64,000 nt of DNA from Bacteroidota bacterium (GTDB lineage: Bacteria; Bacteroidota; Bacteroidia; Bacteroidales; FEN-979). The notes beneath the pieces were generated by a model. It was not told where the DNA came from and did no database searches. It saw only the letters and a list, made by a program, of their open reading frames with translations. A program made the position numbers and the translations under genes. Of the stretch, positions 4,761-27,190 are shown piece after piece. Position 1 is the first letter of the stretch, and each line of letters starts with the position of its first letter. The DNA lies in the NCBI GenBank assembly GCA_026391845.1, contig JAPLDG010000300.1:19595-83594 (forward strand), read 5' to 3'.

Positions 4761-6533
4761 TTACCTGCCGGATGGTATCAGCACAAGTTTCGATTCACCG
4801 GAAGTGATCACGGTTGAGATTCCTCTCCTGCGGGTGATGACAACGCTCAGCAGGTAAACTCCTGCAGGGCGGCCGGTCAGATCGAGCATCGTGTCTGTAC
4901 TCCCGGGAAAGTATTTGTCAACCACTTTTCCGCCAGTCAGTGTGAATATGGAAACATGCAAGCCGGTTACTTCTTCAGGTGAATGCAGCGTAAGGGTGAA
5001 CTTTCCGCCGGAGGGGTTTGGGAAGACGCTGAATGTCGGGTATGCCATGCTACCTTTTTCAGCCCCTGATGTCAGGTTTTCCGGTTTGAAAACCGAATCC
5101 TGACCATTCCTCAGCGCCGGGCAATAGTTGCCACTGGTATTGATCCGTGCCAGCAGGTGACCGTTCGGGTGTACCGAGGTTCCATCTTTCAGTACGACCT
5201 TTTCACCTGCCTCCATGATTGCATTACCGGCCGGATAAACGATAAACGACTGTCCGTTCCCGCCGGCAACAATGGTTTGCAGCGAGCCAAAGCAGGTATC
5301 CGTACCCGACATGACGGAGGAGGCCAGGTTTTTAAACCCGGGCAGAGTTGCCGAGATATCGGTCGAAAAGGGAAAAAGGCGCGTATCGACCCATTCATCG
5401 GTGGCGTCGGATTCCATTGCCAGGACCAGCGCTTCCAGCCAGTAGCAATCGGCGATTCCGATCGGTGCACTTTGCATGAACGCATTCAGGGCAGCTGATT
5501 TTTTTTGGATCACCCACCGTTCAACGGGCATGATCATGCCGAACATCTCGCTGGGGATCCCGATTCCTTCATCTCCGGTCCATCGGGTAAAGTATGGAGA
5601 CTGTCGGAGCCACCAGAGAGGGAATCTCGATAAACCTTCGTTGTGACGCTGCACAACAGCGGTATAAACCATGTCCCTGAGGTACCTGCCCAACTCGGGG
5701 CTGAGATTCAGAAAGATGTACCCACGGTATCCAAGGTAATCACTGCGGGGGTCATACTCATTTGCGTAGGGTGCATTCCACCCCTGTTTGCCGTAAAAGG
5801 CCATGGAATCGGCATAATGGATATCCAGGCCGTTGTTCAGAAAAGCAGTCAGCCGGAGGGTGGCTGCATCCACCTGTCCGGGATCGTTGAATATCCTTGC
5901 GAGGCGTGCCATCCCGATATGAGCACTCATGGAGCCGTATAGGTTGCCGGGGTCGATGCCTTCACCGGTCCGGGTATTGTAAAACGTTTTTATGCTGTTG
6001 TACCAGGGCTCAACGGCAGTGGTATCTCCGGTGCGGTAAAGATAGAGCCAAACGCTGTAAACGTTCTGAATGCAAGGGCGGTAATTCCCGAAACCGGAAT
6101 TCAGCCCCCATATCTTATCGGCTGCATAAAATTCCCTGCGTATCCCGGTATCACGGTTCACAGGGTTGTGAGCCCAGGGTGCGTGGATGGTGCTGGCAAA
6201 CAGCAGGGGAACCATCTCGTGAAGGAGAGATTGCTGGCCCCCGGTGAGGTAGGGCCAGGCCATGGCCACGGTTTGAAGGATCCTCCCCGGCTCCTGGTAT
6301 AGGAAGTAACTCTCATACACCTGGTCACTGTAACGGCAGGTGACCGGCCGGAAAAAGAGGGAGCCGGAGTCAATTACAGCCTGCATCTCCCGGCGCAGTT
6401 TGTCGCGAAGCTCCGTGTTAACAGACAGGTTATGCTGCAGGGGGTATTCCCACAGGTATTTGCTGACATTTACCTGCGATTTGACGGTCAGCCCTGCAAA
6501 CAATGATATGAGGATAAAGAGGGTGAGTTTCAT
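4761..6533 (-). CDS. Secreted protein of unknown function with T9SS C-terminal sorting domain
   Basis: Signal peptide MKLTLFILISLFAGLTVKSQ. C-terminus FSVFPNPSGGKFTLTL...VSIFTLTGGKVV...LDLTGRPAGVYLLSVV is a typical CTD. Confidence 0.8.
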   Translation of the reverse strand: MKLTLFILISLFAGLTVKSQVNVSKYLWEYPLQHNLSVNTELRDKLRREMQAVIDSGSLFFRPVTCRYSDQVYESYFLYQEPGRILQTVAMAWPYLTGGQQSLLHEMVPLLFASTIHAPWAHNPVNRDTGIRREFYAADKIWGLNSGFGNYRPCIQNVYSVWLYLYRTGDTTAVEPWYNSIKTFYNTRTGEGIDPGNLYGSMSAHIGMARLARIFNDPGQVDAATLRLTAFLNNGLDIHYADSMAFYGKQGWNAPYANEYDPRSDYLGYRGYIFLNLSPELGRYLRDMVYTAVVQRHNEGLSRFPLWWLRQSPYFTRWTGDEGIGIPSEMFGMIMPVERWVIQKKSAALNAFMQSAPIGIADCYWLEALVLAMESDATDEWVDTRLFPFSTDISATLPGFKNLASSVMSGTDTCFGSLQTIVAGGNGQSFIVYPAGNAIMEAGEKVVLKDGTSVHPNGHLLARINTSGNYCPALRNGQDSVFKPENLTSGAEKGSMAYPTFSVFPNPSGGKFTLTLHSPEEVTGLHVSIFTLTGGKVVDKYFPGSTDTMLDLTGRPAGVYLLSVVITRRRGISTVITSGESKLVLIPSGR

Positions 6534-6576: not shown

Positions 6577-9500
6577 TTAATGGTGTTCAATGGCTACAAT
6601 GCCGAATGTTTCGGCTATAAATACATAATTGCCGGTGATTGCGGGGGCTGTCCGTCCCATGGTGGCGGTCTGGCCGGTCAGATATGGCACATCGGCATAA
6701 CCGATGTTCTGGTTCACGTTGCGGTAGCAAATATTGGCGTTGGCAAAATTACCGCCATCCGAATAACGGGTCGTCACCTGCACCAGGGTATGCTGGCTTT
6801 CTGCCAGGTCGATCACCTGGGTGCCCCTGAAGTTCTGCCGCATCCAGAGATAATGTCCGCCTGTGCTGAGGGCATACAGATTGTCTGTTTCGATGGGGAA
6901 CATCCCTGCCACATGGCCGTTGTCGATCGGAACCCGGAAACCTGTATTCTGGTTGATCCCGGCAACATCGAGGGAGTAGTTTGTACCGAAAGCAGGGCCC
7001 GTTGCTGTGAGTTTCGGGTAGCGTGTTTTCCACCAGCAAAGGATCCTTCCCTCGTGGTCCACTGCCGGTGAAGGAGCAGGGAATCCGCACCCGTCAACAG
7101 GACCGGCCGGAATGAGGAAGGGTTCCTGCAATGTGAGGGTGTCGAGGGCGAAGATGTGCTGCCAGTCCGATGAAGCATGGTTCCATGTTCCTCCGTTGTC
7201 GTCGCCCTGGAGCCAGCGTTTGATGTTCTGTTCCTCCTCCGCGAGACTGGCTGAGGAGGTCATCACCTCCTCCATGATATATTCGCTGCCCGACAAGGCT
7301 GCGTTGGCCGAGGTAACCCACACCCGGCCATGGTGAACGACGGGGTGACACATCCGGAAACTCTGTCCCCTTACCTGATGTGATCCGCGGATGGCCCCGG
7401 AAGCAAGGATGATGGCATAAACCTTCATGTTTTCAGCAGGTACATAAACCGAGTTGCCATCTGCCGCAATGCCCCCGGTAACGGGTGATGGCAGGTTCTG
7501 TTCCCACAGGATATTCCCGTCGCTGCCGAACCGGAATACCTGTCCGCCGTGGTTTGCAACGATCACACTGTTTGAAAGAATACAGGGCGGGGTGGTGATG
7601 GCGCCCCGGGTATCGTAATACCATTTCGTTGCTCCGGTTGCCGTGTCGAAGGCATACACCGACCCTGTCAGAGATGCAAACACCACCTTGCCGCCAACCA
7701 CTGCGGCACTCACCAGCGACCCTCCCGGGACGGCAGAGCTCCAAAGGGTTTCTCCGTTGTCAATGTTCAGCGCATAAGCATTGCCTTCCATGGTACAGAA
7801 ATAGAGTCTGGTTCCTTTGATCACCGGCTGAACGCTTTCGGCGATGGTGAAGTTCACGGTGTCGGGTATCGGGAAGGAGTAACCATCACGCGAGGTAAGG
7901 TCATCGGGCCAGCCGGGTTCGCTCTCCTGGTTCCGGAGGGTATTTCCCGGCCCGGCCCATATCCATCGCACGCGGAAGGGAGGAGCCACGGAAGCGCTGG
8001 GATGGCCGGTGCGTGAGGCATCTTTCTGAAACTGCGGCCAGTCGTATGTCACGGATGTTCCGCTACCAGGGCTGCCGTTGTAAAGTTTCACGGCGAAATC
8101 TGTTACGAGGTCTGCCACCCCGATCTGCAGGTTTCCCGATCCATCCACCGTTACTACCTCCGGTGTGCCGGGAATGGTGTCTTCATCCCAGGAATTCCAG
8201 CGTTCCATTGTGATCGTTCCGGGTGTCAACCCCGAAATGGTCACGATGCCGCTTTGAGGAGCGGGGTTCCCGGAGGTCACGACATTTTTCCAGGTGTGAT
8301 TCCGGTTCCGGATCCAGAAATGGGCGGCCGTTCCGTTTCCATTTACCTGCCCCCAGGTACTAATTGCAGGGTTGGAGGTGGCGGCGTCGATGGCATGATA
8401 CTGCCCTGTAGTCAGCGGGATATTTTTCATAAAGGAGGTGAACCCTTTGTATCGCCGGTAAAGATTGTTGTTCCGTATATTTTCGGTATTCCAGATCAGT
8501 CCGGTCATACCCCCCTGGTTGATATGTCCCCAGACGAAATTGTGCAGCCACACTCCGGCGGTGTCAAGCGCAAGAAGCGGGTCGGGCGACTGGTTGCCGG
8601 GCATATCGAGGTCGGTTTCGCCCAGTACGACCGGCTTATTCCGTTGAGGATCATTCCCGGTGGTAACAGAATATGCGTAAATGGCTGCTGCGGCATCATT
8701 TTTCAGCATCTCCCGGTTGAAAAGGGTACCGTTGATGGTGATGGTATCGATCCATCCGGTGGTCATCACATAGGCATGCACATCGGCGTAATCGGCATGA
8801 GAATCCTTCCAGTAGTCTGGAACCCAACTGCTCCAGAAGGAAGTTGAGACCATGCGGGGATAGGGGCTTCGGGTATCGCAGTAATCGGCGAGGTCGTTGG
8901 TCAGATCGAAATAAGAACCTGGCGCTCCTTCATTTACCAGTTCCCAGGAATGTACCGAGGTTGCGTAGCCCCAGCGTGCAATGAGGTTGCGCCAGTAATA
9001 TTCATAAAGCCTGTGCAGTCGGGTTTGCTGAGGTTGTTCGAACGAACCCTTGTTTGGGGAGACCAGCCCGGCCCGGTCGATGTGGTTGCAGATGTAATCG
9101 TTTTTCTCGAAAATAACGATCTTGTAATGTATATCAGAACGGTTGGCTGTATCGATCAGGTAATCGGCATTCCTGCACCTGATCGGGTCGAGGTACTCAT
9201 GGCTGTTGGCGTTCCATTTGCTGAGGATATTCTCTTTCAGGCTGCCGTCAGGGTTGACCTCCTGGATGGTCAGCTGGTCAAGGAAGGCCTCTCCTGCGCA
9301 ATCTTCGAGGACGAGATAAAGATAGTCAAGTGAATGCTGGGTACTTCCTGTAGTTATATTGCCGATGAGGTATCCCCAGGGATTGTCGCCTTTTAAGTAC
9401 CCCGAAAGGAGTGTGCCGATACCCGGGTTCACGACTCCGGTGCCAAGCCATCCGCCGGTCTTTATCACAAGCCCGCCGTTCCCGGTTATATTGATTGTTT

Positions 9501-11379
9501 TGACCCGTGCGGTGATCTGGTACTGTGTCAGGGGTTTTACACAGACAGATCCGTCCCAGAATCCTCGGAAGATGGCCGGGGTATTGACATTTTCGATGGC
9601 CGGAGCTGCCAGCCGGTAGGAAAAATCACCGCTACCGTAATGCTGCCCGTAGGTAAGCAAGGGAGGAGGCATGTAGCCGTTGGGGGTCATCGGGTGGTGG
9701 GTTGCCCAGGATGACCATGAATCGCTGAAGGGTGAGCTGCCTGACAGCCAGAACCTGCCGAATGTCAGGTTATTCGCCTTCCATTCGTTTGTCTCCGCAT
9801 CACTCTGGTCGGGACCCGAAACTGCCGTGCCGTGACCGGCTGCAATAAAGGGCTGACCGTCGTCGTATTCGAAATAGCGGTTATCAGTTGCCGAAACCCG
9901 GATGTATCCTTTGTTGAGTGAATCCGGTACAACGGTAAAAAGTGGCCCGTTGGTCAAGGTTGTACCTCCGGCATCGGTGGCGATGATCTGCGAGGTCCAG
10001 GTGCCGGTCTCCCGGAAAGCCATCCTGACGGTCCAAGTCCATTCTCCCGATGGCAGCAGCTGGCTTCCGTCACGAAGGTATGCCATGTTCAGGAACGCAG
10101 GCTGCCTTTTTACGACGGTCCCCCGGGTGAAAACCATATCGACGGTGACTCCCGTTCCGGTGCCTGTGTGGCCCGGCATGAGCGTATCGTAGGGGAAGAA
10201 GAGGTTTTCTGCAATGGTCTTCAGCGAAAAGGTGACATCGGTGCGTTCATATTTTCCCAGGTCTGTAAGGGTTGCCGACACCGCAGTCACAACGGGGCCT
10301 GAATACCCGGGGGGCTGTGAAAAAACGGTGACATCCGCGGCTGCAATGGTGCCGTCGCTGCTGAAAGACTGGATGCTTATCTTGTTTTTTCCCGTGGAGA
10401 GTTTCATCGCGGTGATCCGGAAAGTATCGGCCACCACCGGCTCATATCCGCTTTGCATGGTTCGTTCGTTGATCCAGAAGATATCCCCGGAGCCACCCGA
10501 ACGGGTGCCGGTAACAGTCACCTGTTCCCCGGTGGTAGTAAACAGGCTTCCTGAACCTGAAGAAGGTGACAGGACCGAAACCGAATGGCTGATGGTGCCG
10601 GTCGCTGTCACAGCGATGGAGAGGGTATCAATAGCGCCGACGTCGTCGGTCACTGTAAGGCTGAGTGTATAATGTCCGGGGATCCTGTATATGTGGCTGA
10701 AGGAGGCGCTCCCGGCATTCACAGCGCCGTCGCCAAAGTCGATGTGATAGTTGTCGATCACCCCGTCTGGGTCATGGGCAAACACGGTCCCGGTAACGGC
10801 TAGCGGCACACTGCCTGATTGCGGTACAAGGCGCAGGGAGTCGATGACCGGGCCTGCGTTGATCACCGGTTCCTCTGTCAGAATCACCTCATCGAAACTG
10901 AATTCAGGGGACCATGAGGATCCGCCGAAGAACCCGATCTGCACACGCACCTGGGTGGTGGAGGGGGTGAAGGTGACGATTTCCTGGAACCACACGCCCT
11001 GGGGCCTGTTTTGAAGGGTATAGAAATCGGATGAATAATAGGCCGACCAGTTGTACTCGATGGCCGAAAACCGGATCCCTCCCCAATCGCTGCCTGTCAT
11101 GTTATTGATCCTGATCCAGGCGCTCAATTTGTAGGTCTTTCCCGGAACGACCAATATGGGCGATTGCTCAAGGGTGCCGTTGCCATTGAACTTCACGCAG
11201 TGCGATCCTGTGTGGAAATCGGTATTGATCACTTCAATGGGCGGGTACCAGCCCGACCATCCTGATTCGCCGTTTTCAAAACCACCATTGTTGAGGATAT
11301 TGACGGTCTGGCCGCGGGTAATGAGCGCTGCGGCGACAAAGGCAAAAAAGAAAACCGTTGATAAAAATAGTCGCATCAT
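6577..11379 (-). CDS. 1600-aa secreted multidomain protein: CBM4/9-like module, PKD domain, Ig-like spacers, clan GH-A-like TIM barrel, C-terminal PQQ/BamB-like beta-propeller
   Basis: Signal peptide. NGGFENGESGWSGW (CBM-like). DPDGVIDNYHIDFGDG...YTLSLTVTDDVG (PKD). WELVNEG, then DVHAY, then VVLGETD about 104 aa later (acid/base NE and nucleophile E spacing typical of GH-A). Repeats of the type YALNIDNGETLWS / VYAFDTATGATKWYY / VFRFGSDGNILWEQ (PQQ-like). No T9SS CTD at the C-terminus. Confidence 0.85.
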   Translation of the reverse strand: MMRLFLSTVFFFAFVAAALITRGQTVNILNNGGFENGESGWSGWYPPIEVINTDFHTGSHCVKFNGNGTLEQSPILVVPGKTYKLSAWIRINNMTGSDWGGIRFSAIEYNWSAYYSSDFYTLQNRPQGVWFQEIVTFTPSTTQVRVQIGFFGGSSWSPEFSFDEVILTEEPVINAGPVIDSLRLVPQSGSVPLAVTGTVFAHDPDGVIDNYHIDFGDGAVNAGSASFSHIYRIPGHYTLSLTVTDDVGAIDTLSIAVTATGTISHSVSVLSPSSGSGSLFTTTGEQVTVTGTRSGGSGDIFWINERTMQSGYEPVVADTFRITAMKLSTGKNKISIQSFSSDGTIAAADVTVFSQPPGYSGPVVTAVSATLTDLGKYERTDVTFSLKTIAENLFFPYDTLMPGHTGTGTGVTVDMVFTRGTVVKRQPAFLNMAYLRDGSQLLPSGEWTWTVRMAFRETGTWTSQIIATDAGGTTLTNGPLFTVVPDSLNKGYIRVSATDNRYFEYDDGQPFIAAGHGTAVSGPDQSDAETNEWKANNLTFGRFWLSGSSPFSDSWSSWATHHPMTPNGYMPPPLLTYGQHYGSGDFSYRLAAPAIENVNTPAIFRGFWDGSVCVKPLTQYQITARVKTINITGNGGLVIKTGGWLGTGVVNPGIGTLLSGYLKGDNPWGYLIGNITTGSTQHSLDYLYLVLEDCAGEAFLDQLTIQEVNPDGSLKENILSKWNANSHEYLDPIRCRNADYLIDTANRSDIHYKIVIFEKNDYICNHIDRAGLVSPNKGSFEQPQQTRLHRLYEYYWRNLIARWGYATSVHSWELVNEGAPGSYFDLTNDLADYCDTRSPYPRMVSTSFWSSWVPDYWKDSHADYADVHAYVMTTGWIDTITINGTLFNREMLKNDAAAAIYAYSVTTGNDPQRNKPVVLGETDLDMPGNQSPDPLLALDTAGVWLHNFVWGHINQGGMTGLIWNTENIRNNNLYRRYKGFTSFMKNIPLTTGQYHAIDAATSNPAISTWGQVNGNGTAAHFWIRNRNHTWKNVVTSGNPAPQSGIVTISGLTPGTITMERWNSWDEDTIPGTPEVVTVDGSGNLQIGVADLVTDFAVKLYNGSPGSGTSVTYDWPQFQKDASRTGHPSASVAPPFRVRWIWAGPGNTLRNQESEPGWPDDLTSRDGYSFPIPDTVNFTIAESVQPVIKGTRLYFCTMEGNAYALNIDNGETLWSSAVPGGSLVSAAVVGGKVVFASLTGSVYAFDTATGATKWYYDTRGAITTPPCILSNSVIVANHGGQVFRFGSDGNILWEQNLPSPVTGGIAADGNSVYVPAENMKVYAIILASGAIRGSHQVRGQSFRMCHPVVHHGRVWVTSANAALSGSEYIMEEVMTSSASLAEEEQNIKRWLQGDDNGGTWNHASSDWQHIFALDTLTLQEPFLIPAGPVDGCGFPAPSPAVDHEGRILCWWKTRYPKLTATGPAFGTNYSLDVAGINQNTGFRVPIDNGHVAGMFPIETDNLYALSTGGHYLWMRQNFRGTQVIDLAESQHTLVQVTTRYSDGGNFANANICYRNVNQNIGYADVPYLTGQTATMGRTAPAITGNYVFIAETFGIVAIEHH

Positions 11380-11580
11380 CTGTAAATTAATGGGTAGGTC
11401 AAAGTTAAAAATTAAATACTTTCTTCGGGTTACGCTTTATGAAATCCGCCAATCATGTTTTTTAAGTTATTATTTCCTGAAATTTGGTTTGCATCAAAAG
11501 TAGAAGTACTTTTATCGTAATTCCAAGACAGGATCAACTTGTGTTTTAACCGATAAAACCGGCGATCTGTGGTAGTTAAA

Positions 11581-12576
11581 ATGTTTGTCAGCCTTATTCC
11601 CGTATTCCTCTTCCTGGTGATGCTGTTATACCTCGACAGCTACAAACTGGTGAGCAAACTATTGCTGGTCATCTGTTTTGTATGGGGAGTGCTGAGTGCG
11701 GCGGGGAGTTTCTATACAAATACCCTGCTGATGAAGCACCTGGATGTCAGCTTTGAGACCTACTCCGGTTTTATTGCACCCCTGGTCGAAGAGACCCTCA
11801 AATGTACCCTTCTGTGGATTTTGATTAAAAAGAATAAAGCCGGGTTCATGATCGATGGCGCCATCTATGGTTTTGCGATCGGGGCAACCTTTTCTTTTGC
11901 GGAAAACCTGTTCTACCTGTCGCAATATGCCGACAGCCAAAACAACCTCATGGTATGGATCACGCGCGGATTTGGGACGGCCGTCATGCACAGCGGCACA
12001 ACGGCCATATTTGGTATTTTGTGCATGAGTGCCCTGAACAGGCAATTGAAACTGGGATGGGCAAGTGCGACAGGGCTTCTGGCTGCGTTCATCATTCACG
12101 GGATATTCAACCAGTTTCTGGTTTCACCGGTGGTGTCAACTGTGATTATCCTGCTGCTGGTCCCTTTGTCCATCACCTTGATTTTTTCTGCCAGCGAGAC
12201 ATCAATCCGCAACTGGCTCGAACTTGAATTTGATTCCGAAGCCGGAATTCTACGGATGATCAGAAAAGGGAAGTTTGCCTCAACAAAAACCGGTACTTTT
12301 CTTGTTTCCCTGAAGGATCATTACCCCGGAGAGGTGGTGCTCGACATGTATTGTTTTATCAGCCTGTACCTGGAACTCTCCATGAAGGCAAAGACCATGA
12401 TGATGCTGAAGGAAAATGATTTTGAGATCCCCGCAGATCCGGAGCTGTCGCTGAAGATCAGGGAGCTGAATGCCCTGAAAAAAAGCATTGGCCGCGGCGG
12501 ATATCTTGCTATTGCCCCGGTTTTGCGCATGAACCGCAAGGATCTCTGGAAAATATCCATGCTTGAAAAAATGTAA
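11581..12576 (+). CDS. PrsW-family intramembrane protease homolog with extended cytoplasmic C-terminal domain
   Basis: Multi-TM protein with PrsW motifs: EETLK (E-E-x-x-K), FSFAENLFY, AVMHSGTTA, FIIHGIFN. The track ORF starts at GTG 11569; ATG 11581 (MFVSLIPVFLF) is the more likely start. Confidence 0.75.
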   Translation: MFVSLIPVFLFLVMLLYLDSYKLVSKLLLVICFVWGVLSAAGSFYTNTLLMKHLDVSFETYSGFIAPLVEETLKCTLLWILIKKNKAGFMIDGAIYGFAIGATFSFAENLFYLSQYADSQNNLMVWITRGFGTAVMHSGTTAIFGILCMSALNRQLKLGWASATGLLAAFIIHGIFNQFLVSPVVSTVIILLLVPLSITLIFSASETSIRNWLELEFDSEAGILRMIRKGKFASTKTGTFLVSLKDHYPGEVVLDMYCFISLYLELSMKAKTMMMLKENDFEIPADPELSLKIRELNALKKSIGRGGYLAIAPVLRMNRKDLWKISMLEKM

Positions 12577-12639
12577 TGCCGGCAAACATATGGAAAATAA
12601 TGAATACCCTTCACCAACCTTTTCCTGTTCCTCCGTATT

Positions 12640-13185
12640 ATGATAATCAAGGACGATAATGAGCTGGTTTATGAAGTGATTCAAGGCAGTATTTCTTCCT
12701 TTGAAGTTTTGATCGACAGATACCAGAAAACTATCTTTAACCTGATGTTGCGGATGGTGAATGATACGGAAACAGCCAAAGATCTCACACAGGATTTGTT
12801 CGTAAAGGCTTACGAAAAAATTGGCGGATTCAATTTCAAATTCCGATTTTTCAGTTGGATTTACCGCATGGCGTTCAATATGGCAATCGACTGGAACAGG
12901 AAACGGCAACCTGCCTGCCCGATCGAAATGGTGGAATCCCGGTTATCTGATACTCCGGAGCCGAACGATTCAGAAATCAGGAGCAATCTGCTGCATGTTG
13001 CTCTGCGGAAGCTTGATCCGGATTACCGGGTTTTGGTGCTGTTGAAATATTACTGCGGGCTTTCCTACCAGGAAATTCAGGAAACAACCGGAATCCCGCT
13101 GAAAAAAGTTCGTTCACGTCTTTTCATTGCCAGGGAGCAGTTGAGAAAAGGGTTGATTGTCAATGATTTTTTTGAACATGACTGA
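12640..13185 (+). CDS. ECF-type RNA polymerase sigma-70 family factor
   Basis: Region 2 DLTQDLFVKAYEKIGGF. Region 4 HTH LSYQEIQETTGIPLKKVRSRLFIAREQLRK. 181 aa. Confidence 0.9.
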   Translation: MIIKDDNELVYEVIQGSISSFEVLIDRYQKTIFNLMLRMVNDTETAKDLTQDLFVKAYEKIGGFNFKFRFFSWIYRMAFNMAIDWNRKRQPACPIEMVESRLSDTPEPNDSEIRSNLLHVALRKLDPDYRVLVLLKYYCGLSYQEIQETTGIPLKKVRSRLFIAREQLRKGLIVNDFFEHD

Positions 13186-13960
13186 TAAGCTGATCATCGA
13201 AAAAATATGCCGGGATCTGGACCATGAGCTAAACGCCCGGGAAAAGGCTGACCTGGCTGTTTATCTTGCATCGAACCCGGAAGCAGCCCAGATATACCAG
13301 CAACAAGCCTTGATTAAAAAGCAGCTGGATGATGGACAGGCATCGATGATTGAAATTGATCTTAAAAAAGACATTTTAAATAAAATAGCTATGGAAGGAT
13401 ATAAACAACCCCCGAAGAAAGACGGTGTCCGCATCGTTCCAGGATTTTTGTCAAGACCGGTCGTGAAATTTGGCTTTACATTCGTAACCGGCTTCTTTTT
13501 GGGTTTCCTGATTTTCAGCTTCCTGAAAGCTGATCTTTCCGGAAACTCCGGGCAAACAGACCAGATGAAAGGAACCTTTTACGATTCAAAATCGACAGGC
13601 GGTATAAAAAATGCCGGTGTTCTCCAGTATGACAATCCCGTGGCTAAAGCCCTTGTCAATGTTCGTTATTCGACTACGATGGTTGAGATTACCGCTGAGC
13701 TGAACTCCAGCGAACCCGTGAAATGCAATTTCCAGTTCGATTACAACAATTTTAATGTACTGAACATTCAGAATGTCAGTGTGAACAGCCAGACGACTGC
13801 CCTGGCTTCCGGAAACTTCATCCAGATCAACAACATGGGGGAAAACAAATTCCTGATCTATCTGGCCAACAAAAACGCCCTGGAGAATAACATCGACTTT
13901 AAGATAATGCTGAACGATTCGCCCATTTTTCAGAATTCCGTTCAGGTGAACAAGGATTAA
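13178..13960 (+). CDS. Putative single-pass anti-sigma factor
   Basis: The start ATG overlaps the sigma stop (ATGACTGA). A short cytoplasmic helical N-terminus is followed by one TM (VVKFGFTFVTGFFLGFLIFSFL) and a ~130-aa outer domain. The call is by position and architecture; no zinc-finger anti-sigma motif is seen. Confidence 0.6.
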   Translation: MTDKLIIEKICRDLDHELNAREKADLAVYLASNPEAAQIYQQQALIKKQLDDGQASMIEIDLKKDILNKIAMEGYKQPPKKDGVRIVPGFLSRPVVKFGFTFVTGFFLGFLIFSFLKADLSGNSGQTDQMKGTFYDSKSTGGIKNAGVLQYDNPVAKALVNVRYSTTMVEITAELNSSEPVKCNFQFDYNNFNVLNIQNVSVNSQTTALASGNFIQINNMGENKFLIYLANKNALENNIDFKIMLNDSPIFQNSVQVNKD

Positions 13961-13980
13961 CCATATTAAACTCCTGTAAA

Positions 13981-15246
13981 ATGAAAAAGCAAACGAAAAT
14001 TATTATCAGTCTGGTGATGGTCATTGCCATCCTGATCATCGGAATTTCCCTCTTCTATCCTGAAGTTTTTAAAGGCATTACATCCGGCACTTTCGGTAAA
14101 GCAGACAAATATCATAAAGCCCAGATGACGGATACAGATATTCAGCTCAGGAGTGAATATACAGCCGACACGGGCGAGTTGAGAGCTATGATCCAGGGAC
14201 TGATCTATTTCTCCTATTTCACGAACAACCTCAGCAGAACCATGGATTCCTGTGTCGAGGTCCTATCCAAAAACGGGATGACCGATCAGAAGACGGGATA
14301 TTCCAATGTGGCCGCTTTATCAGATTATTCTGCATTCATCCGGAACAACAATAAAACGCTGGGGACCACCATCAGCATGCTCACCGGATTCTATCTGAAT
14401 GCCAATTCCGATCCATCGGCCGATGTTGAAAAAAACCTGCGCGATTTCGGAAATTATGTGAAAAACCTGAATGAAAAGGATTCAATCCTGGAGCTGGCGC
14501 TGAAGAGCATCGACGGACATATGCTTGACAGCAAAACGCTGCAGGCCAGAAAAACCGAACTGGCTTCGGTGAAATCCATCCGCGATCAACTGCTGATAGG
14601 CAGTATTCAGTTGTCGGCCCTGCTGCAGGATAAGCCACTTTGTGCAACGTTATGTTCCTATGCAATTTCATCGCAGTCAAGCCTCGGAATGTTATTTGGG
14701 CAAGAAAAGCTGGGAGCCATCAATAACCAGGATAAACTGGCTTACATGAGCCAGGATAAACTTGCCGATTTTGTCGTCAACAACCAGGTGTCGTTCGGAT
14801 CTCAGGATCAGTTTGGAAACATGATCCAGTCACAGACGGTCAACAGCGCCATAAAATCGAAAGGAGATGACCTGGGTAAACTGATCGGCAGCGTTATTAT
14901 TTATGACAAGGCAAACCTGGCGTGGGTGGTTGGAAGTGCCGCTGATCTTAAGGTTGGATTTATTGCCAGTAACCTGCAAAACTCACTTGGTGCGACTGAA
15001 AAGTTTGGCAACATGGTGGGTGTCATCATCTTATCCCGGGAGGGGTTGAATGTATTCGGGTCAAACTTCGACCTGAAAAGTGCAGTCCAGTCGCAGGAAC
15101 TTTCATCTTTTCTCAGCGCAAGCCAGATGGGAGTCGTAATCATCCTGGCCAGGGATGGAATCGGTTCGGTTGCTTATGGGTCCAGTTTTATCGGATTGAT
15201 CGGACAACTGAACAGCCAAAGCATGATTGGAATCATGGATAAGTGA
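13981..15246 (+). CDS. N-terminally membrane-anchored protein of unknown function with quasi-repetitive Q/G/S-rich C-terminal half
   Basis: TM IIISLVMVIAILIIGISLF. Internal repeats such as QDKLAYMSQDKLADF and GVIILSREGLNVFGS / GVVIILARDGIGSVAYGS. Lies 20 nt after the anti-sigma gene. Confidence 0.65.
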   Translation: MKKQTKIIISLVMVIAILIIGISLFYPEVFKGITSGTFGKADKYHKAQMTDTDIQLRSEYTADTGELRAMIQGLIYFSYFTNNLSRTMDSCVEVLSKNGMTDQKTGYSNVAALSDYSAFIRNNNKTLGTTISMLTGFYLNANSDPSADVEKNLRDFGNYVKNLNEKDSILELALKSIDGHMLDSKTLQARKTELASVKSIRDQLLIGSIQLSALLQDKPLCATLCSYAISSQSSLGMLFGQEKLGAINNQDKLAYMSQDKLADFVVNNQVSFGSQDQFGNMIQSQTVNSAIKSKGDDLGKLIGSVIIYDKANLAWVVGSAADLKVGFIASNLQNSLGATEKFGNMVGVIILSREGLNVFGSNFDLKSAVQSQELSSFLSASQMGVVIILARDGIGSVAYGSSFIGLIGQLNSQSMIGIMDK

Positions 15247-15283
15247 CTTTGATGACCGGTGCTGATCACTAAATGATGTGTTT

Positions 15284-18041
15284 ATGTTTAAAACAATTAC
15301 CCGGAAAAGCCTATACGTCCTGTTACTTCTCCAACTGTTAAACGGGTATTTGCATGCACAGCATAAACTCAGACTTCAGCAATTCCAGACACCGCACGTC
15401 AAGCTCGTGTTTCTGGATAGAAACACCTCCTACCTGGTGCCGCACACCGTCAGGTCTTTTGAAAACGCCCTTGCCTTTCATAAAAAATTTTGGAGTTATG
15501 CTCCGTCGGGAGCTACGAATATCCTGTTCAACGATTTTTCAGATATTGGAAACGGTGGAACGATGGTCATCCCATGGAACTTTCTGAACATTGGTGTCTC
15601 TCCGTTCGATTACACCTTTTCGGTGGTGCCTTCCAATGAACGGATGCAATGGCTGATGAGCCATGAACTCACTCACCAGACGATGTGCGACCAGGCATCA
15701 GCAACCGACCGGACGATTCAGAAGATATTCGGGGGCAGGGTGATGCCCGACAACCGTGACCCGGTTTCTTTGATCTACAGCTATTTTACCACCCCACGAT
15801 GGTATTCGCCACGGTGGTATCATGAAGGTATTGCTGTTTTCATGGAGACATGGATGTCGGGGGGCATCGGCCGTGTCATGGGCGGGTATGATGAAATGGT
15901 TTTCCGCACGATGGTCCGCGACAGCGCATTTTTTTACAATGTTATCGGCCTGGAAACCGAAGGCACTCCTGTGGGAACACGATTTCCAGCAGGGAAACCT
16001 GGCACGGATCAGGCAGGTCCCCGTCACCAGGATGCGCAGGATCACCTGTGCACCTGTGGGCTCCGCATCGCGACCCTGGTTCGACCGGCAGAACGGTCAG
16101 ATTTACATGGCGGTGAATTACCCTGGAAAACTGGCTCATCTGGTGAGCATCGACCTACAAAGCGGAGCCATGAAGAAAATCGCCCCGGTACCCAGCCCCG
16201 GGTTATATTACGTGACCAGTCTTGCCTACGACGATTCAACAAAGACGCTTTTTGCCTCCACCCACAACACCGACTGGCGCGGGCTGCAATCGATCGACAT
16301 TCATACCGGAAGAACGAAGGAGCTGATGAAATTTGACCGTGCCGGGAACCTGGTATTTAATCATAAAGACCGCGCGATTTACGGAGTACAAACCATGAGC
16401 GGCAGGTCTACCCTCGGCAGGATCCCGGCGCCATATTCAAAATGGCAGGATCTTTACACGCTTCCCTTTGGCAGGGATTTTTCGGACCTTGATATCTCTC
16501 CCGACGGGTTATGGCTTTCAGGAACGTTGAGTGATATCCAGGGAAGGCAAAAACTGGTTTTATTCCGGATTGCCGATCTGGAGGCAGGTAAAATGGAATT
16601 CAAAGAGATTTATGAGTTTGAAGACAATCCGGCTGCCAATTTTGTGTTCTCCCCCGACGGGAAGTACCTGGTTGGAACCTCTTATTATACAGGAGTATCC
16701 AATGTTTTCAGGATTTCGCTGGAAACCCTCCGGGCTGAAATCCTGACCAATGCAACAAGTGGTTTTTTCCGGCCGTTGCCTCTTTCCGGCGATTCCATGC
16801 TGGTGCTTGAATATACGCATGAGGGAATGATGCCAGGAATGGTAAAAATTGATACGCTGGCCGATGTCAATGCCATCGAATTTCTCGGCCAGAAAATTTA
16901 CAAACGTTATCCGCAGGTTGAATCATGGATGCTTCCACCGCCATCAAAGGTCAACCTTGATTCTCTGCAGGTGACAGAAACACGATACAAACCGCTGAAA
17001 GAGCTGAAACTGGCCAGCGCATATCCCATCATCCAGGGTTATCAATGCTATGCCGCCGTGGGGTACCGGCTGAATTTCATGGATCCCGCCGGGCTGAATT
17101 TGCTGACGGTGAAATGGTCATTCAGTCCGCAGCCCTCCTTGCCCCTGAAACAAACCGTGCATCTTGCGGTGGATTACTCCCTCTGGAACTGGAACTTCTC
17201 CGCCAATTACAACTATGCCGATTTTTATGACCTGTTTGGCCCGACTAAATTCAGCATGGCAGGCTATTCTTTCTCGGTGAAATACAACAAGCTTTTTAAC
17301 CGGCTGTCGCCCGGAAAATCGGAGTTCTATGTTAAACTTACCGCCTATGGCGATCTTGAAACCCTGCCATTCTATCAGAATATTGCCTCAGATTATCGGA
17401 ATTTGTATGTAGGGACCCTCAGTTACCATAAAAGTTATCTCCGGAAGTCGTTGGGTGCAATCGAACCCGAGCAGGGGTACGACTGGAATGTATATGCCAT
17501 TACGAGTTTTGCCAGGGAAACATTTTATCCCCAGCTCATCAACAATTTTGACCTGGGGTTCCTGCTGCCGGTCCGCAATTCAGCATTCTGGTTCCGGACT
17601 TCGGTGGGTCAGTCCTTCGGTGAGTCGGACAAGACCAACTCCTACTTTTATTTCGGCGGGTTCCGGAATAACTACCTTGAGTACCGGTCGGCGCAGCAAT
17701 ACAGGGACATGTCGGGTTTTCCGGGTTTGCAGATTGACCAGATATCCGCCCTGAATTACGGCAAACTCACCACCGAATTAGATTTCAGGCCGATCCGGTT
17801 CCGGAAACTCGGGTTGCTGGGCTTTTATTCGACCTATGCCCGTTTTTCCATTTTTGGGATGGGCATGTTCACCAATATCGCCAATGATCAGCCACAGCGC
17901 AACTACTTTTCGTCGGGCATTCAGCTCGACCTCGAACTGGTGATGTTTTCGCTGCTTAAATCAACCCTTTCATTTGGCTTTGCCAGGGCATACGGACCCA
18001 TGGCCCCTCTCGACCAGTTTATGATCTCTCTTAAACTGTAA
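15284..18041 (+). pseudogene. Frameshift-disrupted gene: HExxH metallopeptidase-like domain + TolB-like beta-propeller + C-terminal outer-membrane beta-barrel (about 920 aa if intact)
   Basis: Track ORFs 15278..16336 and 15822..18041 each look protein-like on only one side of about nt 15960-15975. Frame A is good up to ...FFYNVIGLETEG and frame B is good from ...WEHDFQQGNLARIRQ onward; frame B is +1 relative to A. Signal peptide present. MSHELTHQ (HExxH) plus YHEGIAVFMETW. The barrel-like C-terminus has alternating aromatic strands. Confidence 0.7.
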
Positions 18042-18077
18042 TTCTGATACAATTCAAACTCAGTATAATAGGTCAAA

Positions 18078-20468
18078 TCATTCACCATTCCGCAAACAGC
18101 GAAGAGGAAATCCACCTGCCTTAAAGTTGTAATACGTCGTTTGACTATAGGAACTTGAGATCGCAAAATCCCCGGCATTCCAATCACTTCCACCGGTACT
18201 GCTCCAGTAGTTTCCAGAAATGCCCCGGCCTGAAACCGGCGGATTTACGGTTCTGGAGGGCACATGTCCTGCGGCATGGATTTTAAGCGTGGAATTCCAG
18301 GGACCAATCCAGTCGTTCCACCCTCCGGCATTGTCAATATTGCTATACTCTGTAAAAGTGGGTATGCGCCAGCCTGCGCCTAGTTCGATGGAGCAGGGGT
18401 CATTTGTGATGATCCAATCCGAATTTTCATAGAACAAGGTTATCCAGGCAGAAAGCGGTGAAACGGTCCCACCGTCGGGCTTAAATCCTTGCTTATGGTT
18501 GAACTCCCAATACCAGCCTGCTGATTCTTCAGTAGCGTCATCCATGGCGGTCGCCTGGTGGTCGGCGCCAAGATTGCTGGTGATCCAGCATTTGGAAGGT
18601 TCGCCGGGGAGATTCGTAACCGTTCCGTAGGTAACCGTCTTTGAAACCGGGGCAACAGCGCCGGCGGTATGGTTTACCGTGATTGAATCGCCGCAGGTCC
18701 AGCAATTGACTGTTGAAATCGTCAGCGTTGCAGGCGGGGAGACCTCGCAGGCGTTGTAGGCCCAAACATAGCGTGTAAAGTCTGTGTTGCAGGGGAGTCC
18801 CGTCTCGGTATGGGTGGTGTCCGTCCCCAGGTCGGTGGCGCTGCCATAATCGTTTGTGCTGTTGAATTTATAGCCTGTTGCCGTGGCAGCCGGGTACCAC
18901 TTCCAGACTACCTGGTGCTCCCCGGGCACCTGAACACCCGGCGCAGGGGCCGCGAAGGTGGGATTCTCCAGGGTCCAGCTTGCCGTTACCTGGCAAAGAC
19001 GGGCATCGGTGACCGTTACGGTATAGGTTCCGGCACAAAGACCCGATGCATTCTGTTCTGTTGTTGAATTGCTCCAGGCATAGGTATAGGGAGGGGTACC
19101 CCCGGAATCGCTGATGTCCACTCCGCCATCGCAGGCCCCATAGCAAGAGACAGCCGTGATGGTACCGGTAACTGAAAGAGAGTTTACCGGTTCGGAAATT
19201 ATAAAGGTATTTGTCAATGAGTCATGGTTCAGGCAGAACAAGGCGTCGGTAACGGTAACGGAATAGATTCCCGGCCCAATTCCTGTGCGGTTCTGCGTGG
19301 CAGCTGCATCGTTCCAAAGGAATGAATAGGGCGCACTGCCCCCGGATACAGTGAGGGTGATGGCTCCGTTGCCCTGGCCAAAACAGGAGACTGGCGTGGT
19401 GTCGCCGCCAACGATGATGGGCGAGAGTATCTCGGTGAAGAATATGGCTTTCGAAACAGCGCCGGCTGGTGGACTGTAGTTCATGGTCAGGTAAAAGAGA
19501 TCGGTTGCATAGCCGGGTTCCCCGAATGGAATGACCGGATCCTGATCGGATGAGATCCACGAGCCACTTGAGTTCTCCCAATGGTAACTTGAACCCGCAG
19601 AGCCGCACCCCCCGGAAGGGAATGGGCATGAGAGCCGGATGGGTTCCCCGTAACAAACGGGCTGGCATCCCTTGAAGACCTGGAAGCCGGTTGCTGTGAA
19701 TCCCGCGATGCACGATTCAAAAGAGGTCACGTTGCATTCGATCCGGTCGTTGAGAACGGGCTGACAGGCGTACGTTGAATTGGTCTCTCCCGGCACATCC
19801 GTTCCGTTCACGTTCCATTGATAAAGTGGGTTAACAACGATTCCGCTGATGCCGGCTGTGAATGTGTGACTTGCTTCGGAACATGCCGGGTTGACATTGG
19901 AGGAGATAGATACTTCGAGCGCCGAGCCGGGTACCAGCTTGATATTCAGGCAGCTCAAGGTGCTTTTCGCGCATGAGCTGACCGTCGAAACACATATGTT
20001 CCCGTTCGTCGAGCCGAAATTCACGGTGATGGAGTCCGTTCCCTGTCCATGGGTGATGGTGGCCCCGGGCGGAACCATCCAGGTGTACCCCGTGGCACCC
20101 GGCACAGCAGCAACCGAATAAACCTCGCAGGAGGCATATATGCAGGGGCTGCTTTTACCGGTGATGGCTCCGGGAGGATCGACTACGCCGCTGTTGCCCA
20201 AAGGTACCCAGGCGGAGCCGTTGAAAAACTGCACATCATTGCAGTCAAGGTTGTAGATGATCAGACCGGTGGCCGGGGAGGAAATCGCGTCGCGCTGCAG
20301 GGTTGTCATCCGGGGAGGTAGCATGCCCTTGTTAATGAATTTGACATCCAGCCCGGCTGAAGGGTCAGGCTGGCTTCCATCGGTGTTGATACCGACCTGT
20401 GCCGAAAGTGGCAATCTGAAAAGGATCATCATTGCCAATAAACCAGGTAATATCGATAGTGCTTTCAT
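18078..20468 (-). CDS. Large secreted adhesin-like protein: PKD-like domain, two SprB repeats, FN3-like domain, C-terminal FISUMP (Fibrobacter succinogenes major paralogous) domain
   Basis: Signal peptide. SprB repeats CFGQGNGAITLTVSGGSAPYSFLWN...YSVTVTDALFC and CYGACDGGVDISDSGGTPPYTYAWSN...YTVTVTDARLC. FISUMP motifs CWITSNLGA...GWRIPT...YWSST...GFPLRCL. Confidence 0.85.
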   Translation of the reverse strand: MKALSILPGLLAMMILFRLPLSAQVGINTDGSQPDPSAGLDVKFINKGMLPPRMTTLQRDAISSPATGLIIYNLDCNDVQFFNGSAWVPLGNSGVVDPPGAITGKSSPCIYASCEVYSVAAVPGATGYTWMVPPGATITHGQGTDSITVNFGSTNGNICVSTVSSCAKSTLSCLNIKLVPGSALEVSISSNVNPACSEASHTFTAGISGIVVNPLYQWNVNGTDVPGETNSTYACQPVLNDRIECNVTSFESCIAGFTATGFQVFKGCQPVCYGEPIRLSCPFPSGGCGSAGSSYHWENSSGSWISSDQDPVIPFGEPGYATDLFYLTMNYSPPAGAVSKAIFFTEILSPIIVGGDTTPVSCFGQGNGAITLTVSGGSAPYSFLWNDAAATQNRTGIGPGIYSVTVTDALFCLNHDSLTNTFIISEPVNSLSVTGTITAVSCYGACDGGVDISDSGGTPPYTYAWSNSTTEQNASGLCAGTYTVTVTDARLCQVTASWTLENPTFAAPAPGVQVPGEHQVVWKWYPAATATGYKFNSTNDYGSATDLGTDTTHTETGLPCNTDFTRYVWAYNACEVSPPATLTISTVNCWTCGDSITVNHTAGAVAPVSKTVTYGTVTNLPGEPSKCWITSNLGADHQATAMDDATEESAGWYWEFNHKQGFKPDGGTVSPLSAWITLFYENSDWIITNDPCSIELGAGWRIPTFTEYSNIDNAGGWNDWIGPWNSTLKIHAAGHVPSRTVNPPVSGRGISGNYWSSTGGSDWNAGDFAISSSYSQTTYYNFKAGGFPLRCLRNGE

Positions 20469-25561: not shown

Positions 25562-25601
25562 CTCCCCTCCTTTTTTCGGGGGGGGGGGCGGAGGCGGGGT
25601 C
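25562..25601 (-). repeat. C-rich element copy C (contains an 11-nt G/C homopolymer at 25578-25588); probable terminator hairpin of the S41 peptidase gene
   Basis: The minus strand reads taGACCCCGCCTCCGCCCCCCCCCCCGAAAAAAGGAGGGGAG, starting at the last base of the peptidase stop codon. It is similar to 34771-34805 and 31524-31550. The C-run can pair with GGAGGGG, with a GAAAAAA loop. Confidence 0.5.
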
Positions 25602-27190
25602 TATTTTTTCAGTATTTCTATCGCTTTATTAAACCCCGGATCAATGGTATTCAATACCGGGAAAAAGCCTGCATTATCCAGCAGGTTCCGGCCAATATAA
25701 GCTTTAAGCATGGTTTTCACATACCGGTCGGATTTCGCAAGATCCCTCCCCGTACGTTTCACCCCTTTTCCGTCGGCATATTTAACAAAATCACCAAAGA
25801 TGGCATCGGTTACCGTAAAACCGCCAATGAACCGGTCAACTGTTTTAAAACGCATCAGCGCTGCCCTGTTGCGGTCGGTATAGTCAAAGGCAAACTGATA
25901 AACCAATCCTTTGTTGATGCATTGGTTATAATAAGCCATGGCCGAATCCTTTTCTATCGGAATAAAAATGTCGGGCATGATTCCGCCGCCGCCATATACT
26001 GTTCGGCCTTTGGGTGTTTTATATTTCAGGGAATCCGGGAATTTAACGGAATCGGCATGTTCCATCTCTCCGTTCATAAAACGGTGGTAATAATCGCTGT
26101 TGTACGTGTCCAAACCGTCTTTGTAAGGTTTCTGGATGCATCGCCCTGTCGGGGTATAATACCTGGCAACCGTGAGCCTCAGCGCACTTCCGTCCTTAAA
26201 ATCAAGTTGCTCCTGAACCAGTCCTTTTCCAAAGGAACGGCGTCCGACAATCAACCCCCTGTCGTGGTCCTGGATCGCTCCTGATACAATTTCGGCAGCT
26301 GAAGCGGTTCCTTCGTCAACCAGGACAAGAAGATCTCCTTTTTCAAATAAACCGTCGGCGGTTGCGTCGGAAACGTCGCGCTTATGGTTCATCCCTTCGG
26401 TATATACAATCAGTTCACCCCTGTCCAGAAATTCATCGGCAACATCAATGGCTGCCTTCAGGTAACCTCCGCCATTGCCGCGCAAATCAAGTATCAGCTT
26501 TTTCATGCCATCCTGCTGCAGGGTTTCAATTGCATTGTGTACCTCTTCATGTGTAGTGGCTGCAAAATTATTCAGGCGGATATAGCCGATCCCGGGTTCC
26601 GGCATGTATGCAATATCCATGCTGTAAGTCGGGATCACATCCCGCGTAATGGTAAAATCAAGCAATCCGCCGGCTCCTCTTCTGAAAATGGCCACCTTGA
26701 CCTGTGTTCCCTTGGCGCCTTTCAGTTTGCGCATGACATCGTTGGTAGAGATTTTGATGCCGGCAATATTCTTCCCGTTAACCTTCACGATCCGGTCTCC
26801 GGAACGTATTCCAAGTTTTTCAGAAGGCCCCCCGGATACAGGGTTGATCACCGTAACCGTATCGCTTTCAATGCGAAACTGTACGCCGATCCCTTCAAAA
26901 CTTCCCAGCAAGGGATCATTGGCCTCATGAAACTCCTCCGCTGAGATATAGACCGAATGGGGATCCAGTTTTTCAAGCAGTCCGCTAATCGCTTTCTCTT
27001 CCAGCGCTTTTCGGCCAAGCGTGTCAACATAATTATCTTCGATATAGCTGATTACCTCCTTCAGCTTGTCCTTCTCAGAAGGCCGCAGATTGAAACTTCC
27101 GGTTCGTGTCCCCAAAAAAATTCCCAAAAGAATTCCTCCCGTCAGGACCATGGCAAACCAGATTGGCAAATAGGGATTATTCTTATTCAT
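25601..27190 (-). CDS. S41-family carboxyl-terminal processing (tail-specific) peptidase
   Basis: N-terminal TM, a PDZ-like segment (FEGIGVQF), and the catalytic Ser region LVDEGTASAAEIVSGAIQD with a downstream GKG. I start at MNKNNPYLPIW (ATG 27190). The track's 81-aa extension to 27433 overlaps the divergent hydrolase gene and looks non-coding. Confidence 0.9.
   Translation of the reverse strand: MNKNNPYLPIWFAMVLTGGILLGIFLGTRTGSFNLRPSEKDKLKEVISYIEDNYVDTLGRKALEEKAISGLLEKLDPHSVYISAEEFHEANDPLLGSFEGIGVQFRIESDTVTVINPVSGGPSEKLGIRSGDRIVKVNGKNIAGIKISTNDVMRKLKGAKGTQVKVAIFRRGAGGLLDFTITRDVIPTYSMDIAYMPEPGIGYIRLNNFAATTHEEVHNAIETLQQDGMKKLILDLRGNGGGYLKAAIDVADEFLDRGELIVYTEGMNHKRDVSDATADGLFEKGDLLVLVDEGTASAAEIVSGAIQDHDRGLIVGRRSFGKGLVQEQLDFKDGSALRLTVARYYTPTGRCIQKPYKDGLDTYNSDYYHRFMNGEMEHADSVKFPDSLKYKTPKGRTVYGGGGIMPDIFIPIEKDSAMAYYNQCINKGLVYQFAFDYTDRNRAALMRFKTVDRFIGGFTVTDAIFGDFVKYADGKGVKRTGRDLAKSDRYVKTMLKAYIGRNLLDNAGFFPVLNTIDPGFNKAIEILKK

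Follow-up and report, generated by a model that had tools for sequence, protein, structure and literature searches.

Bacteria rely on the regulated proteolysis of anti-sigma factors as a central mechanism of stress signalling. The described system closest to the locus reported here is SigW–RsiW–PrsW(YpdC)–RasP of Bacillus subtilis, in which prsW is unlinked to its sigma operon; in C. difficile, csfT is CD0677 and prsW, which we take to be CD0552, is hence presumably unlinked to it as well. To our knowledge, studies of site-1 cleavage by PrsW-type proteases are confined to Firmicutes, in which the protease gene is not linked and the trigger is poorly understood. Here we describe a cluster of five genes (g1–g5) from a public Bacteroidetes metagenome-assembled genome (MAG), in which the gene for a PrsW-family protease lies beside those for a sigma factor of the extracytoplasmic function (ECF) type and a putative anti-sigma factor, followed by two genes for envelope proteins. 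The cluster spans positions 11569–18041 of the window, which is the 64,000-nucleotide (nt) stretch analysed of an 84,363-nt contig, and comprises the following features (aa, amino acids; TM, transmembrane):

11569–12576, plus strand: g1, PrsW-family intramembrane protease (335 aa from GTG 11569, 331 aa from ATG 11581)
12181–12573, plus strand: helical tail of g1 (~130 aa), conserved and all-helical
12614–12639, plus strand: ECF-promoter-like bipartite motif CCAAC-N16-CGTATT, in the g1–g2 gap, abutting the sigma start codon
12640–13185, plus strand: g2, ECF (group 4) sigma factor (181 aa; Sigma70_r2 and r4_2 domains)
13178–13960, plus strand: g3, candidate single-pass, class-I-like anti-sigma factor (260 aa; N-terminal anti-sigma domain, TM segment at ~98–116, C-terminal domain of ~140 aa)
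13981–15246, plus strand: g4, N-terminally anchored protein (421 aa; one TM segment, residues 7–25)
15284–15966, plus strand: N-terminal in-frame part of g5 (signal peptide and HELTH domain up to a deletion junction, after which the open frame continues out of register to 16336)
15967–18041, plus strand: C-terminal part of g5 in the other frame (end of the peptidase domain, TolB-like beta-propeller, ~16-strand region)

The five genes, with starts at 11581, 12640, 13178, 13981 and 15284, are separated by 63 nt, an 8-nt overlap, 20 nt and 37 nt; on recomputation these spacings, and the common strand, agreed exactly with those given in the original prediction, which was made by a model from the sequence alone.

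The likeness to the B. subtilis SigW system extends to several components: a 7-TM protease core of the PrsW family with the same four motifs, an ECF sigma factor closest to SigW, a single-pass anti-sigma candidate with an N-terminal domain closest to that of RsiW, overlapping sigma and anti-sigma genes, and an upstream motif of the AAC...CGTA type with a 16–17-nt spacer. In contrast to B. subtilis, however, the protease gene here adjoins the sigma operon, the protease has a conserved helical tail of ~130 aa, the anti-sigma candidate lacks the zinc motif and carries an unrelated ectodomain, the host is a diderm with two more conserved genes in the set (g4 and g5), and the profile scores lie far below the ortholog cut-offs (PrsW 26.8 versus 225; SigW 108 versus 209). 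The FecI–FecR–FecA system also associates an ECF sigma factor and a membrane anti-sigma factor with a large outer-membrane-type barrel protein as possible input and output, but g5 bears an HExxH motif and a TolB-like propeller, and a PrsW-type protease belongs to the set; no match of the g5 homologs to any TonB-dependent-receptor family, or of g3 to FecR, was among the Pfam scan results. We propose that the cluster encodes in cis a cascade resembling SigW/RsiW/PrsW, with g4 and g5 in its regulon, and that it represents an envelope-signalling module conserved in Bacteroidota and Ignavibacteriota, a reading to which we give an even chance of being correct.

Conservation of the gene set

Relatives of g1 were sought by scanning one genome per species, which found 401, and 80 loci (given here by numbers with the prefix L) were fetched. 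Partner genes were identified by tblastn with the window proteins, and partner counts refer to the 42 species-level loci with at least 6.5 kb on each side of the PrsW-like gene. The original prediction had proposed co-occurrence in related genomes as a check, and the outcome is strongly positive: at least one partner is present in 41 of these loci, g5 in 37 and the sigma gene in 30. The order g1-g2-g3-g4-g5 is found in essentially every long-enough locus with 58–89% g1 identity. When the search was started from divergent g5 proteins (53–57% identity), a PrsW gene, an ECF sigma gene and a g4-sized gene were adjacent in three of four loci; in these g5-centred loci the PrsW gene comes last, and in one of them the sigma operon is divergent. 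The linkage is thus kept through permuted order, with PrsW first or last, through inversion (L036, L066) and through changes of the flanking genes, and the set reaches the phylum Ignavibacteriota, in MAGs of Ignavibacteriales and Melioribacteraceae. Because it outlasts permutation, inversion, new flanks and phylum-level distance, this pattern argues for selection on the linkage rather than for mere inheritance of gene order. The recurrence of the set in dozens of Bacteroidota genomes suggests a self-contained module for stress signalling.

The same observations bear on a much simpler account, in which the adjacency is inherited synteny without functional coupling, or g1 is a PrsW-type peptidase for toxin processing or export. 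Most of the loci do come from MAGs of related Bacteroidales and Prolixibacteraceae, and PrsW domains fused to C-terminal toxin domains have been described (PMC3482391). We nevertheless find this account very improbable, since the linkage survives the rearrangements and distances just listed, the g1 tail is conserved and not polymorphic (60–89% full-length identity in alignment A1; a single architecture in 401 clusters), and g1 is followed by a sigma, g3-like or g4 gene with no variable cassette or immunity-like gene after it. A PrsW-dependent polymorphic toxin, tried as a candidate, was rejected on the grounds of the conserved tail of a single type and the lack of an adjoining immunity-like gene.

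The PrsW-type protease and its helical tail

The Pfam family PF13367 (PrsW-protease) matches residues 31–200 of g1 with 85.8 bits against a cut-off of 23.5. The motifs EETLK, FAENLFY, MHSG and IIHGIFN, on which the original assignment to this family was based, are all present, and their residues E70E71xxK74, F104xxxE108, H137 and H173xxxN177 do not vary among 26 homologs of 59–89% identity (alignment A1), which bears that assignment out. In B. subtilis PrsW/YpdC, the counterparts of these motifs read EExxK, FxxxE, H and HxxxN/D; the protein loses its function when the EE pair or the final His is mutated (PMC12943098). By its profile scores, g1 is best described as a member of the PrsW family and not as an ortholog of B. 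subtilis PrsW. Relatives begin four codons upstream, which makes GTG 11569 a better candidate for the start codon than 11581 and gives g1 the 335 aa that they have.

In an AlphaFold2 model of g1 (predicted local distance difference test, pLDDT, 80.5), seven TM helices extend over residues 3–228 and are followed by four helices in the tail. Lys and Arg residues cluster on loops 1, 3 and 5, and from this positive charge on alternate loops we infer that the N-terminus is outside, that the tail is cytoplasmic and that the motif residues sit within the membrane's outer half. A cytoplasmic tail of ~120 aa had been claimed; the tail exists, measures ~130 aa and is conserved, its predicted side following from the loop charge. 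In an exhaustive search, the tail turned up in 401 sequence clusters; where the protein is full-length, it nearly always forms the C-terminal end of a ~330-aa protein with a PrsW core, and by this distribution it marks a distinct PrsW subfamily. No Pfam family matches the tail, and its fold has no significant counterpart in the PDB, the best hit (E 0.047, to G-protein-coupled receptors) being noise.

Other PrsW proteins are known as fusions to PilZ, cNMP-binding, FHA and Zn-ribbon domains (Zhang et al. 2012, PMC3482391), and a further example is Leptospira LIC_20173 (PMC12943098). They share with g1 an N-terminal PrsW core and a C-terminal accessory domain, probably cytoplasmic, in an arrangement read as a signal-gated peptidase; the accessory domain of g1 differs from theirs in being a four-helix tail without Pfam or significant PDB matches and confined to this subfamily. 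It is probably a regulatory or docking domain.

The sigma factor and its candidate anti-sigma factor

The identification of g2 as an ECF sigma factor was confirmed by its Sigma70_r2 and r4_2 domains and by a score of 99.8 against TIGR02937 (cut-off 42.9). Its top NCBIfam match is SigW, at a level which places it among the ECF sigma factors and short of SigW orthologs.

The product of g3, whose gene overlaps g2 by 8 nt, has a single strong hydrophobic segment (residues 98–116). A family profile built from 15 members was compared with all PDB sequences, and its top two matches were the anti-sigma factors RsiW (5WUQ_C, E=0.0057, residues 4–76) and RseA (1OR7_C, E=0.0096). The zinc motif H-x3-C-x2-C of zinc-binding anti-sigma (ZAS) domains is not in g3, where the aligned stretch, LASNPEAAQIY, contains neither Cys nor His. 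The signal, weak as it is, points to a class-I-like anti-sigma factor with an N-terminal domain of the RsiW/RseA type, for which sigma binding and inhibition are putative. The earlier description of g3 as a single-pass protein therefore stands on its one TM segment, and that of a putative anti-sigma factor is favoured by the nearest profiles but tempered by their E-values. Since g2 best matches SigW, and g3 best matches RsiW and then RseA, the analogy with a PrsW cascade has support in sequence beyond gene order.

A short form of g3 (~185 aa), with the TM segment and ectodomain and no anti-sigma domain, lies beside the PrsW-like gene in L016, L022, L046, L055 and L070, and upstream of g1 in L062. 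No sigma gene was found in the fetched flanks of these loci, which reach up to 8 kb. Such loci link the protease to those parts of g3 that lie in and outside the membrane. In a different group of loci (L014, L021, L023, L028, L032 and L034), the g3 homologs (~229–233 aa) are missing the first ~30–40 residues of the N-terminal domain, though an intact sigma gene precedes them.

An ECF-promoter-like motif upstream of the sigma gene

ECF-type promoters had been suggested upstream of 11581 and 15284, that is, before g1 and g5. None was found at either place, and the 37-nt g4–g5 gap contains no such motif; an ECF-promoter-like motif occurs instead at 12614–12639, directly before the sigma gene. Across relatives its consensus is CCAAC(T)TTT-N12/13-(C/T)GTA(A/T)TT, or CCAAC-N16/17-GTAwTT, and resembles the AAC-N16/17-CGTA pattern of SigW-type promoters. 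In 44 of 52 loci the motif lies no more than 120 nt upstream of the sigma homolog, and a search over the whole window yielded no further copy in a sensible position. Where the sigma gene and g3 are reduced to remnants (L041) or missing altogether (L043), it is still retained upstream of g4, and it heads the whole set in L088, where the sigma gene comes first. For a second copy before g4 in the divergently arranged L086, the candidate was unconvincing.

This placement fits sigma-dependent transcription of the sigma, anti-sigma, g4 and g5 genes. Because the motif lies directly before the sigma gene, g1 would be outside the putative autoregulated unit in the gene order of the window. In L006 and L009, a G+C-rich inverted repeat followed by a T-run, resembling a terminator, is located in the g1–g2 gap between g1 and the motif, which suggests that g1 is transcriptionally insulated in some relatives. 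For g1 itself, one candidate promoter was read from the sequence:

11483–11514, plus strand: candidate housekeeping promoter for g1, Bacteroidetes −33/−7 type, TTTG ... TACTTTTA (low confidence)

A block, GGTTTGCAT.AAAG...GTAC.TTTAT, is common to the window, L001 and L004, and these three also have the TTTG...TACTTTTA element in common. In most other relatives, g1 directly follows a gene whose product ends in ...KIWGGNLMRVM and, by eye from the translation, looks like a membrane dipeptidase. A generic scan for sigma-70 promoters and terminators over 11300–18400 gave counts at background and was uninformative.

The anchored protein g4

The gene g4 belongs to no Pfam or NCBIfam family, and its 176 homologs are all unannotated, the only name given by any source being 'hypothetical protein'. 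The protein has a conserved N-terminal domain, an invariant sequence, SGTFGKADKYH, ten residues past the TM segment, and a low-complexity C-terminus with short repeats of the Q(D/E)KL type. It had been described as a membrane-anchored repeat protein; the anchor is well founded, but the term 'repeat' applies loosely, to these short C-terminal units. Tandem paralogs occur in two to five copies, with five in L020 (10372–15594), four in L058 (10474–15088) and further arrays in L017 (4571–7045) and L047 (10333–12502). Their N-terminal domains are conserved and their C-termini are variable and of low complexity (such as AQDKLQ repeats or a stretch rich in Gly and Asn).

The proteins g3 and g4 have the same predicted topology, N-terminus in and C-terminus out. 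Both also have a G-T-hydrophobic motif just outside the membrane at a fixed position, at +10 in 106 of 106 g4 sequences (within SGTFGKADKYH) and at about +15 in 31 of 37 g3 sequences (MKGTxYDS). This motif is only three residues long and is present in 22% of g4 control windows, so it is taken as a lead only.

The HExxH-propeller-strand protein g5, interrupted in the window

In the window, g5 is not one open reading frame: 15284–18041 is 2758 nt long, which leaves a remainder of 1 on division by 3. Compared with the nearest relatives, L001 and L004 (~90% protein identity), 191 nt are lacking between 15966 and 15967, a deletion that costs the HExxH domain ~65 residues at its end and shifts the frame. 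Two overlapping frames represent the gene in the open-reading-frame list, 15278–16336 (frame A, start at 15278/15284) and 15822–18041 (frame B), and the deposited annotation has the last 623 aa only, as a hypothetical protein. The sole other contig with an identical g1 (Logan SRR20698638, L081) stops short of the junction and offered no independent check of the deletion, which could be a real pseudogene mutation or an assembly artefact.

The architecture was therefore examined in intact homologs. The AlphaFold2 model of the homolog P0121 (pLDDT 79.6; predicted template modelling score 0.78) comprises a signal peptide, an alpha/beta HExxH domain (30–306), a beta-propeller (320–590; pLDDT in this region mostly 80–95) and ~16 long strands (639–981). 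In a Foldseek comparison of a g5 homolog with the PDB, the top 17 matches were TolB (E 1e-9 to 4e-8), and PD40 was matched weakly in 30 of 45 homologs. The peptidase domain gave a recurrent weak signal for Peptidase_MA_2, at E<0.1 in 20 of the 45 (best 4.3e-4), with 14.1 and 13.0 bits in the two homologs with scores, below the cut-off of 32.4. Residues H127, E128, H131, E181 and E188 are invariant in the 45 homologs (alignment A3), and HELTH is retained in the window. For the strand region, one of the 45 homologs gave a weak match to Omp85_2, and no sequence relatives of g5 or of its barrel were found among solved structures. The family has more than 5000 members; the names that sources give are all uninformative, and nearly all read 'hypothetical protein'.

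The succession of signal peptide, HELTH, TolB-like propeller and beta-barrel anticipated by the original prediction is thus found in intact homologs, with the qualifications that the gene is interrupted here and that the barrel is seen only as ~16 predicted strands. We regard g5 as a probable outer-membrane HExxH-propeller-barrel protein, a location suggested by the modelled architecture. With the barrels of the Omp85/TamA/PlpD-like and BcsC/PgaA-like types the intact protein shares a signal peptide, soluble N-terminal modules and ~16 C-terminal beta-strands, but it has no POTRA or TPR modules and carries instead an MA-clan-like HExxH domain and a PD40/TolB-like propeller.

These features would allow the roles of the two proteases to be reversed, with the periplasmic HExxH domain of g5 acting as the signal-sensing site-1 protease for the g3 ectodomain and the PrsW-like protease acting later, within the membrane. 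The HExxH motif and the downstream Glu are invariant, the TolB-like propeller could bind ligands, and neither the cluster nor the window encodes a site-2 protease; moreover, B. subtilis RsiW, in work by Heinrich et al. in 2009, reportedly requires more extracytoplasmic trimming after PrsW cleavage. Such a division of labour seems improbable to us, given that the active-site residues of g1 are predicted in the membrane's outer half, like those of a site-1 PrsW, that PrsW-like genes paired with a short g3 have no g5 in the 8-kb flank searched, and that g5 is interrupted here with the other genes intact.

A candidate cascade and its alternatives

In the cascade that we favour, g3 would span the membrane and hold the ECF sigma factor g2 inactive. 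The PrsW-like protease g1, expressed from its own or an upstream promoter, would make the first cut in g3 at the outer side of the membrane, and a site-2 protease encoded elsewhere would complete the cleavage. The freed sigma factor would then transcribe its own operon, including g4 and g5, from CCAAC-N16/17-GTAwTT, and g4, as an inner-membrane-anchored periplasmic protein, together with g5, as a probable outer-membrane protein, would form an effector or sensor arm. A PrsW cascade at this locus was already part of the original prediction, and it is strengthened by the conservation of the gene set and by the SigW and RsiW profile matches. The prediction needs amending in that g1 lies outside the unit headed by the motif in this gene order, that PrsW-like genes are linked to partners without a sigma gene too, and that g5 is interrupted here.

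Several observations weigh against the proposed cascade. No site-2 protease is encoded across the 64-kb window. At the level of orthologs, g1 reaches 26.8 bits against the cut-off of 225 of the NCBIfam PrsW equivalog NF033739, and g2 scores 108.1 bits against 209 for its top match, NF007223 (SigW), and 97.8 against 243.1 for TIGR02948 (SigW). The assignment of g3 as an anti-sigma factor relies on E-values of ~0.006–0.01, with no match in the Pfam scan, and several relatives have a shortened g3 N-terminal domain. The output arm is probably non-functional in this genome, because g5 carries a frameshifting deletion, unless the assembly is wrong at the junction. The geometry of the upstream motif is also unusual, as its −10-like half ends 0–1 nt before the sigma ATG in close relatives (sigma identity at least 47%; all 33 aligned sequences). 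The first ten sigma codons are clearly coding, with conserved residues and synonymous changes, and because the motif abuts this coding ATG, a canonical ECF start site would fall inside codons 2–3. Either the mRNA would be leaderless with an unusual geometry, or the motif has a role other than, or additional to, that of a promoter; several distant lineages have it 21–27 nt upstream, at a normal distance. Finally, g1, g4 and g5 occur together without a sigma gene in L056, L057, L068, L079 and L080.

These sigma-less loci are at the centre of the main alternative view of the system, in which the core is a trans-envelope machinery for proteolysis or export made up of the PrsW-like protease, g4 and g5. 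The protease would shed g4 proteins and g3-like proteins of N-in/C-out topology, g5 would process or export the released, repeat-rich ectodomains, and the sigma/anti-sigma pair would be an optional regulator that arose when an anti-sigma domain was fused onto one of the substrates. Taken as a whole, core and optional regulator together, we consider this possible but somewhat doubtful. The most persistent partner of PrsW is g5, which 37 of the 42 loci carry, compared with 30 for sigma, and some of the g1-g4-g5 loci have other regulators inserted. In some MAGs there are two PrsW-like paralogs, one beside g4-g5 and the other beside sigma/g3 or a short g3 (L041/L042, L044/L070). The tandem amplification of g4 with variable, low-complexity C-termini, and the topology and G-T-hydrophobic motif common to g3 and g4, also suit a family of shed substrates. 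The motif, however, has the brevity and background frequency given above, and the two-paralog MAGs could be binning mixtures. In L041, moreover, stubs of the sigma gene (36 codons) and of g3 (10 codons) remain at 8985–9185 with the motif and g4-g5 retained, and L042, from the same MAG, has an intact g1-sigma-g3; L041 is hence a decayed canonical locus, and not one designed without sigma. An export role for g5 is a supposition, and the closure and orientation of its barrel are predicted only. This view also overlaps with the proposed cascade rather than excluding it.

A more specific combination, which we find doubtful, would be a trans-envelope system of Bacteroidota and Ignavibacteriota that has not been recognised before: a PrsW protease gated by its tail would shed g3-like proteins and the amplifiable, repeat-tailed g4 family at the G-T-hydrophobic site, with g5 processing or exporting the products and the anti-sigma domain grafted on to report shedding to transcription. 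Within the cascade as proposed, too, the PrsW-like protease is probably more than an anti-sigma protease, because PrsW-like genes persist with g4-g5, or with a short g3, in loci without a sigma gene.

As read by eye from translations, a response-regulator–PP2C gene lies between g4 and g5 in L068 (10476–11663) and L080 (10196–15083), and L080 also has genes for a periplasmic-binding-like protein and a histidine kinase between them; the response-regulator–PP2C and the histidine kinase stand in for the missing sigma regulator there.

Genomic neighbourhood

The cluster is bounded on both sides by minus-strand genes:

6577–11379, minus strand: upstream flanking gene (1600 aa; CBM4_9, PKD and PQQ-propeller domains)
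18078–20468, minus strand: downstream flanking gene (796 aa; PKD-like domains, SprB repeats)

Farther downstream are genes for an S41 tail-specific (CtpB-like) protease (25601–27433, minus strand), ~7.5 kb away with unrelated genes between and on the opposite strand, and for a BlaR1-type M56 and TonB_C protein (29599–30939, minus strand), the two falling within a range of 7–12 kb downstream. Both are genes of envelope proteolysis and signalling, but they fall outside the conserved set. Type IX secretion C-terminal sorting domains are found in the products of 846–1916, 4761–6533, 39696–42158 and 49841–51172. A plus-strand run at 42169–49809, unrelated to the module, consists of genes for a MORN-repeat protein, an unassigned product, a TPR-AAA ATPase, a TPR protein and a TPR–hybrid histidine kinase.

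Discussion

A limited literature search found no work on PrsW in this Bacteroidota module, and the main text of the ECF re-classification paper, taken without its supplements, makes no mention of PrsW. Regulated proteolysis of ECF sigma/anti-sigma pairs is known; what appears to be new is the linkage of such a pair to a tail-bearing PrsW-type protease and to two uncharacterised envelope partners. The synteny and the sigma-less variants yield concrete predictions for a mechanism that we infer, and the variants constitute a natural experiment on other substrates of PrsW-type proteases. The gene set also provides a first functional context for three unannotated families, namely g4, g5 (with its more than 5000 homologs) and the PrsW tail. 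With the protease, sigma factor, anti-sigma candidate and two envelope proteins encoded together, it offers a directly testable system in a diderm phylum rich in uncharacterised ECF sigma factors.

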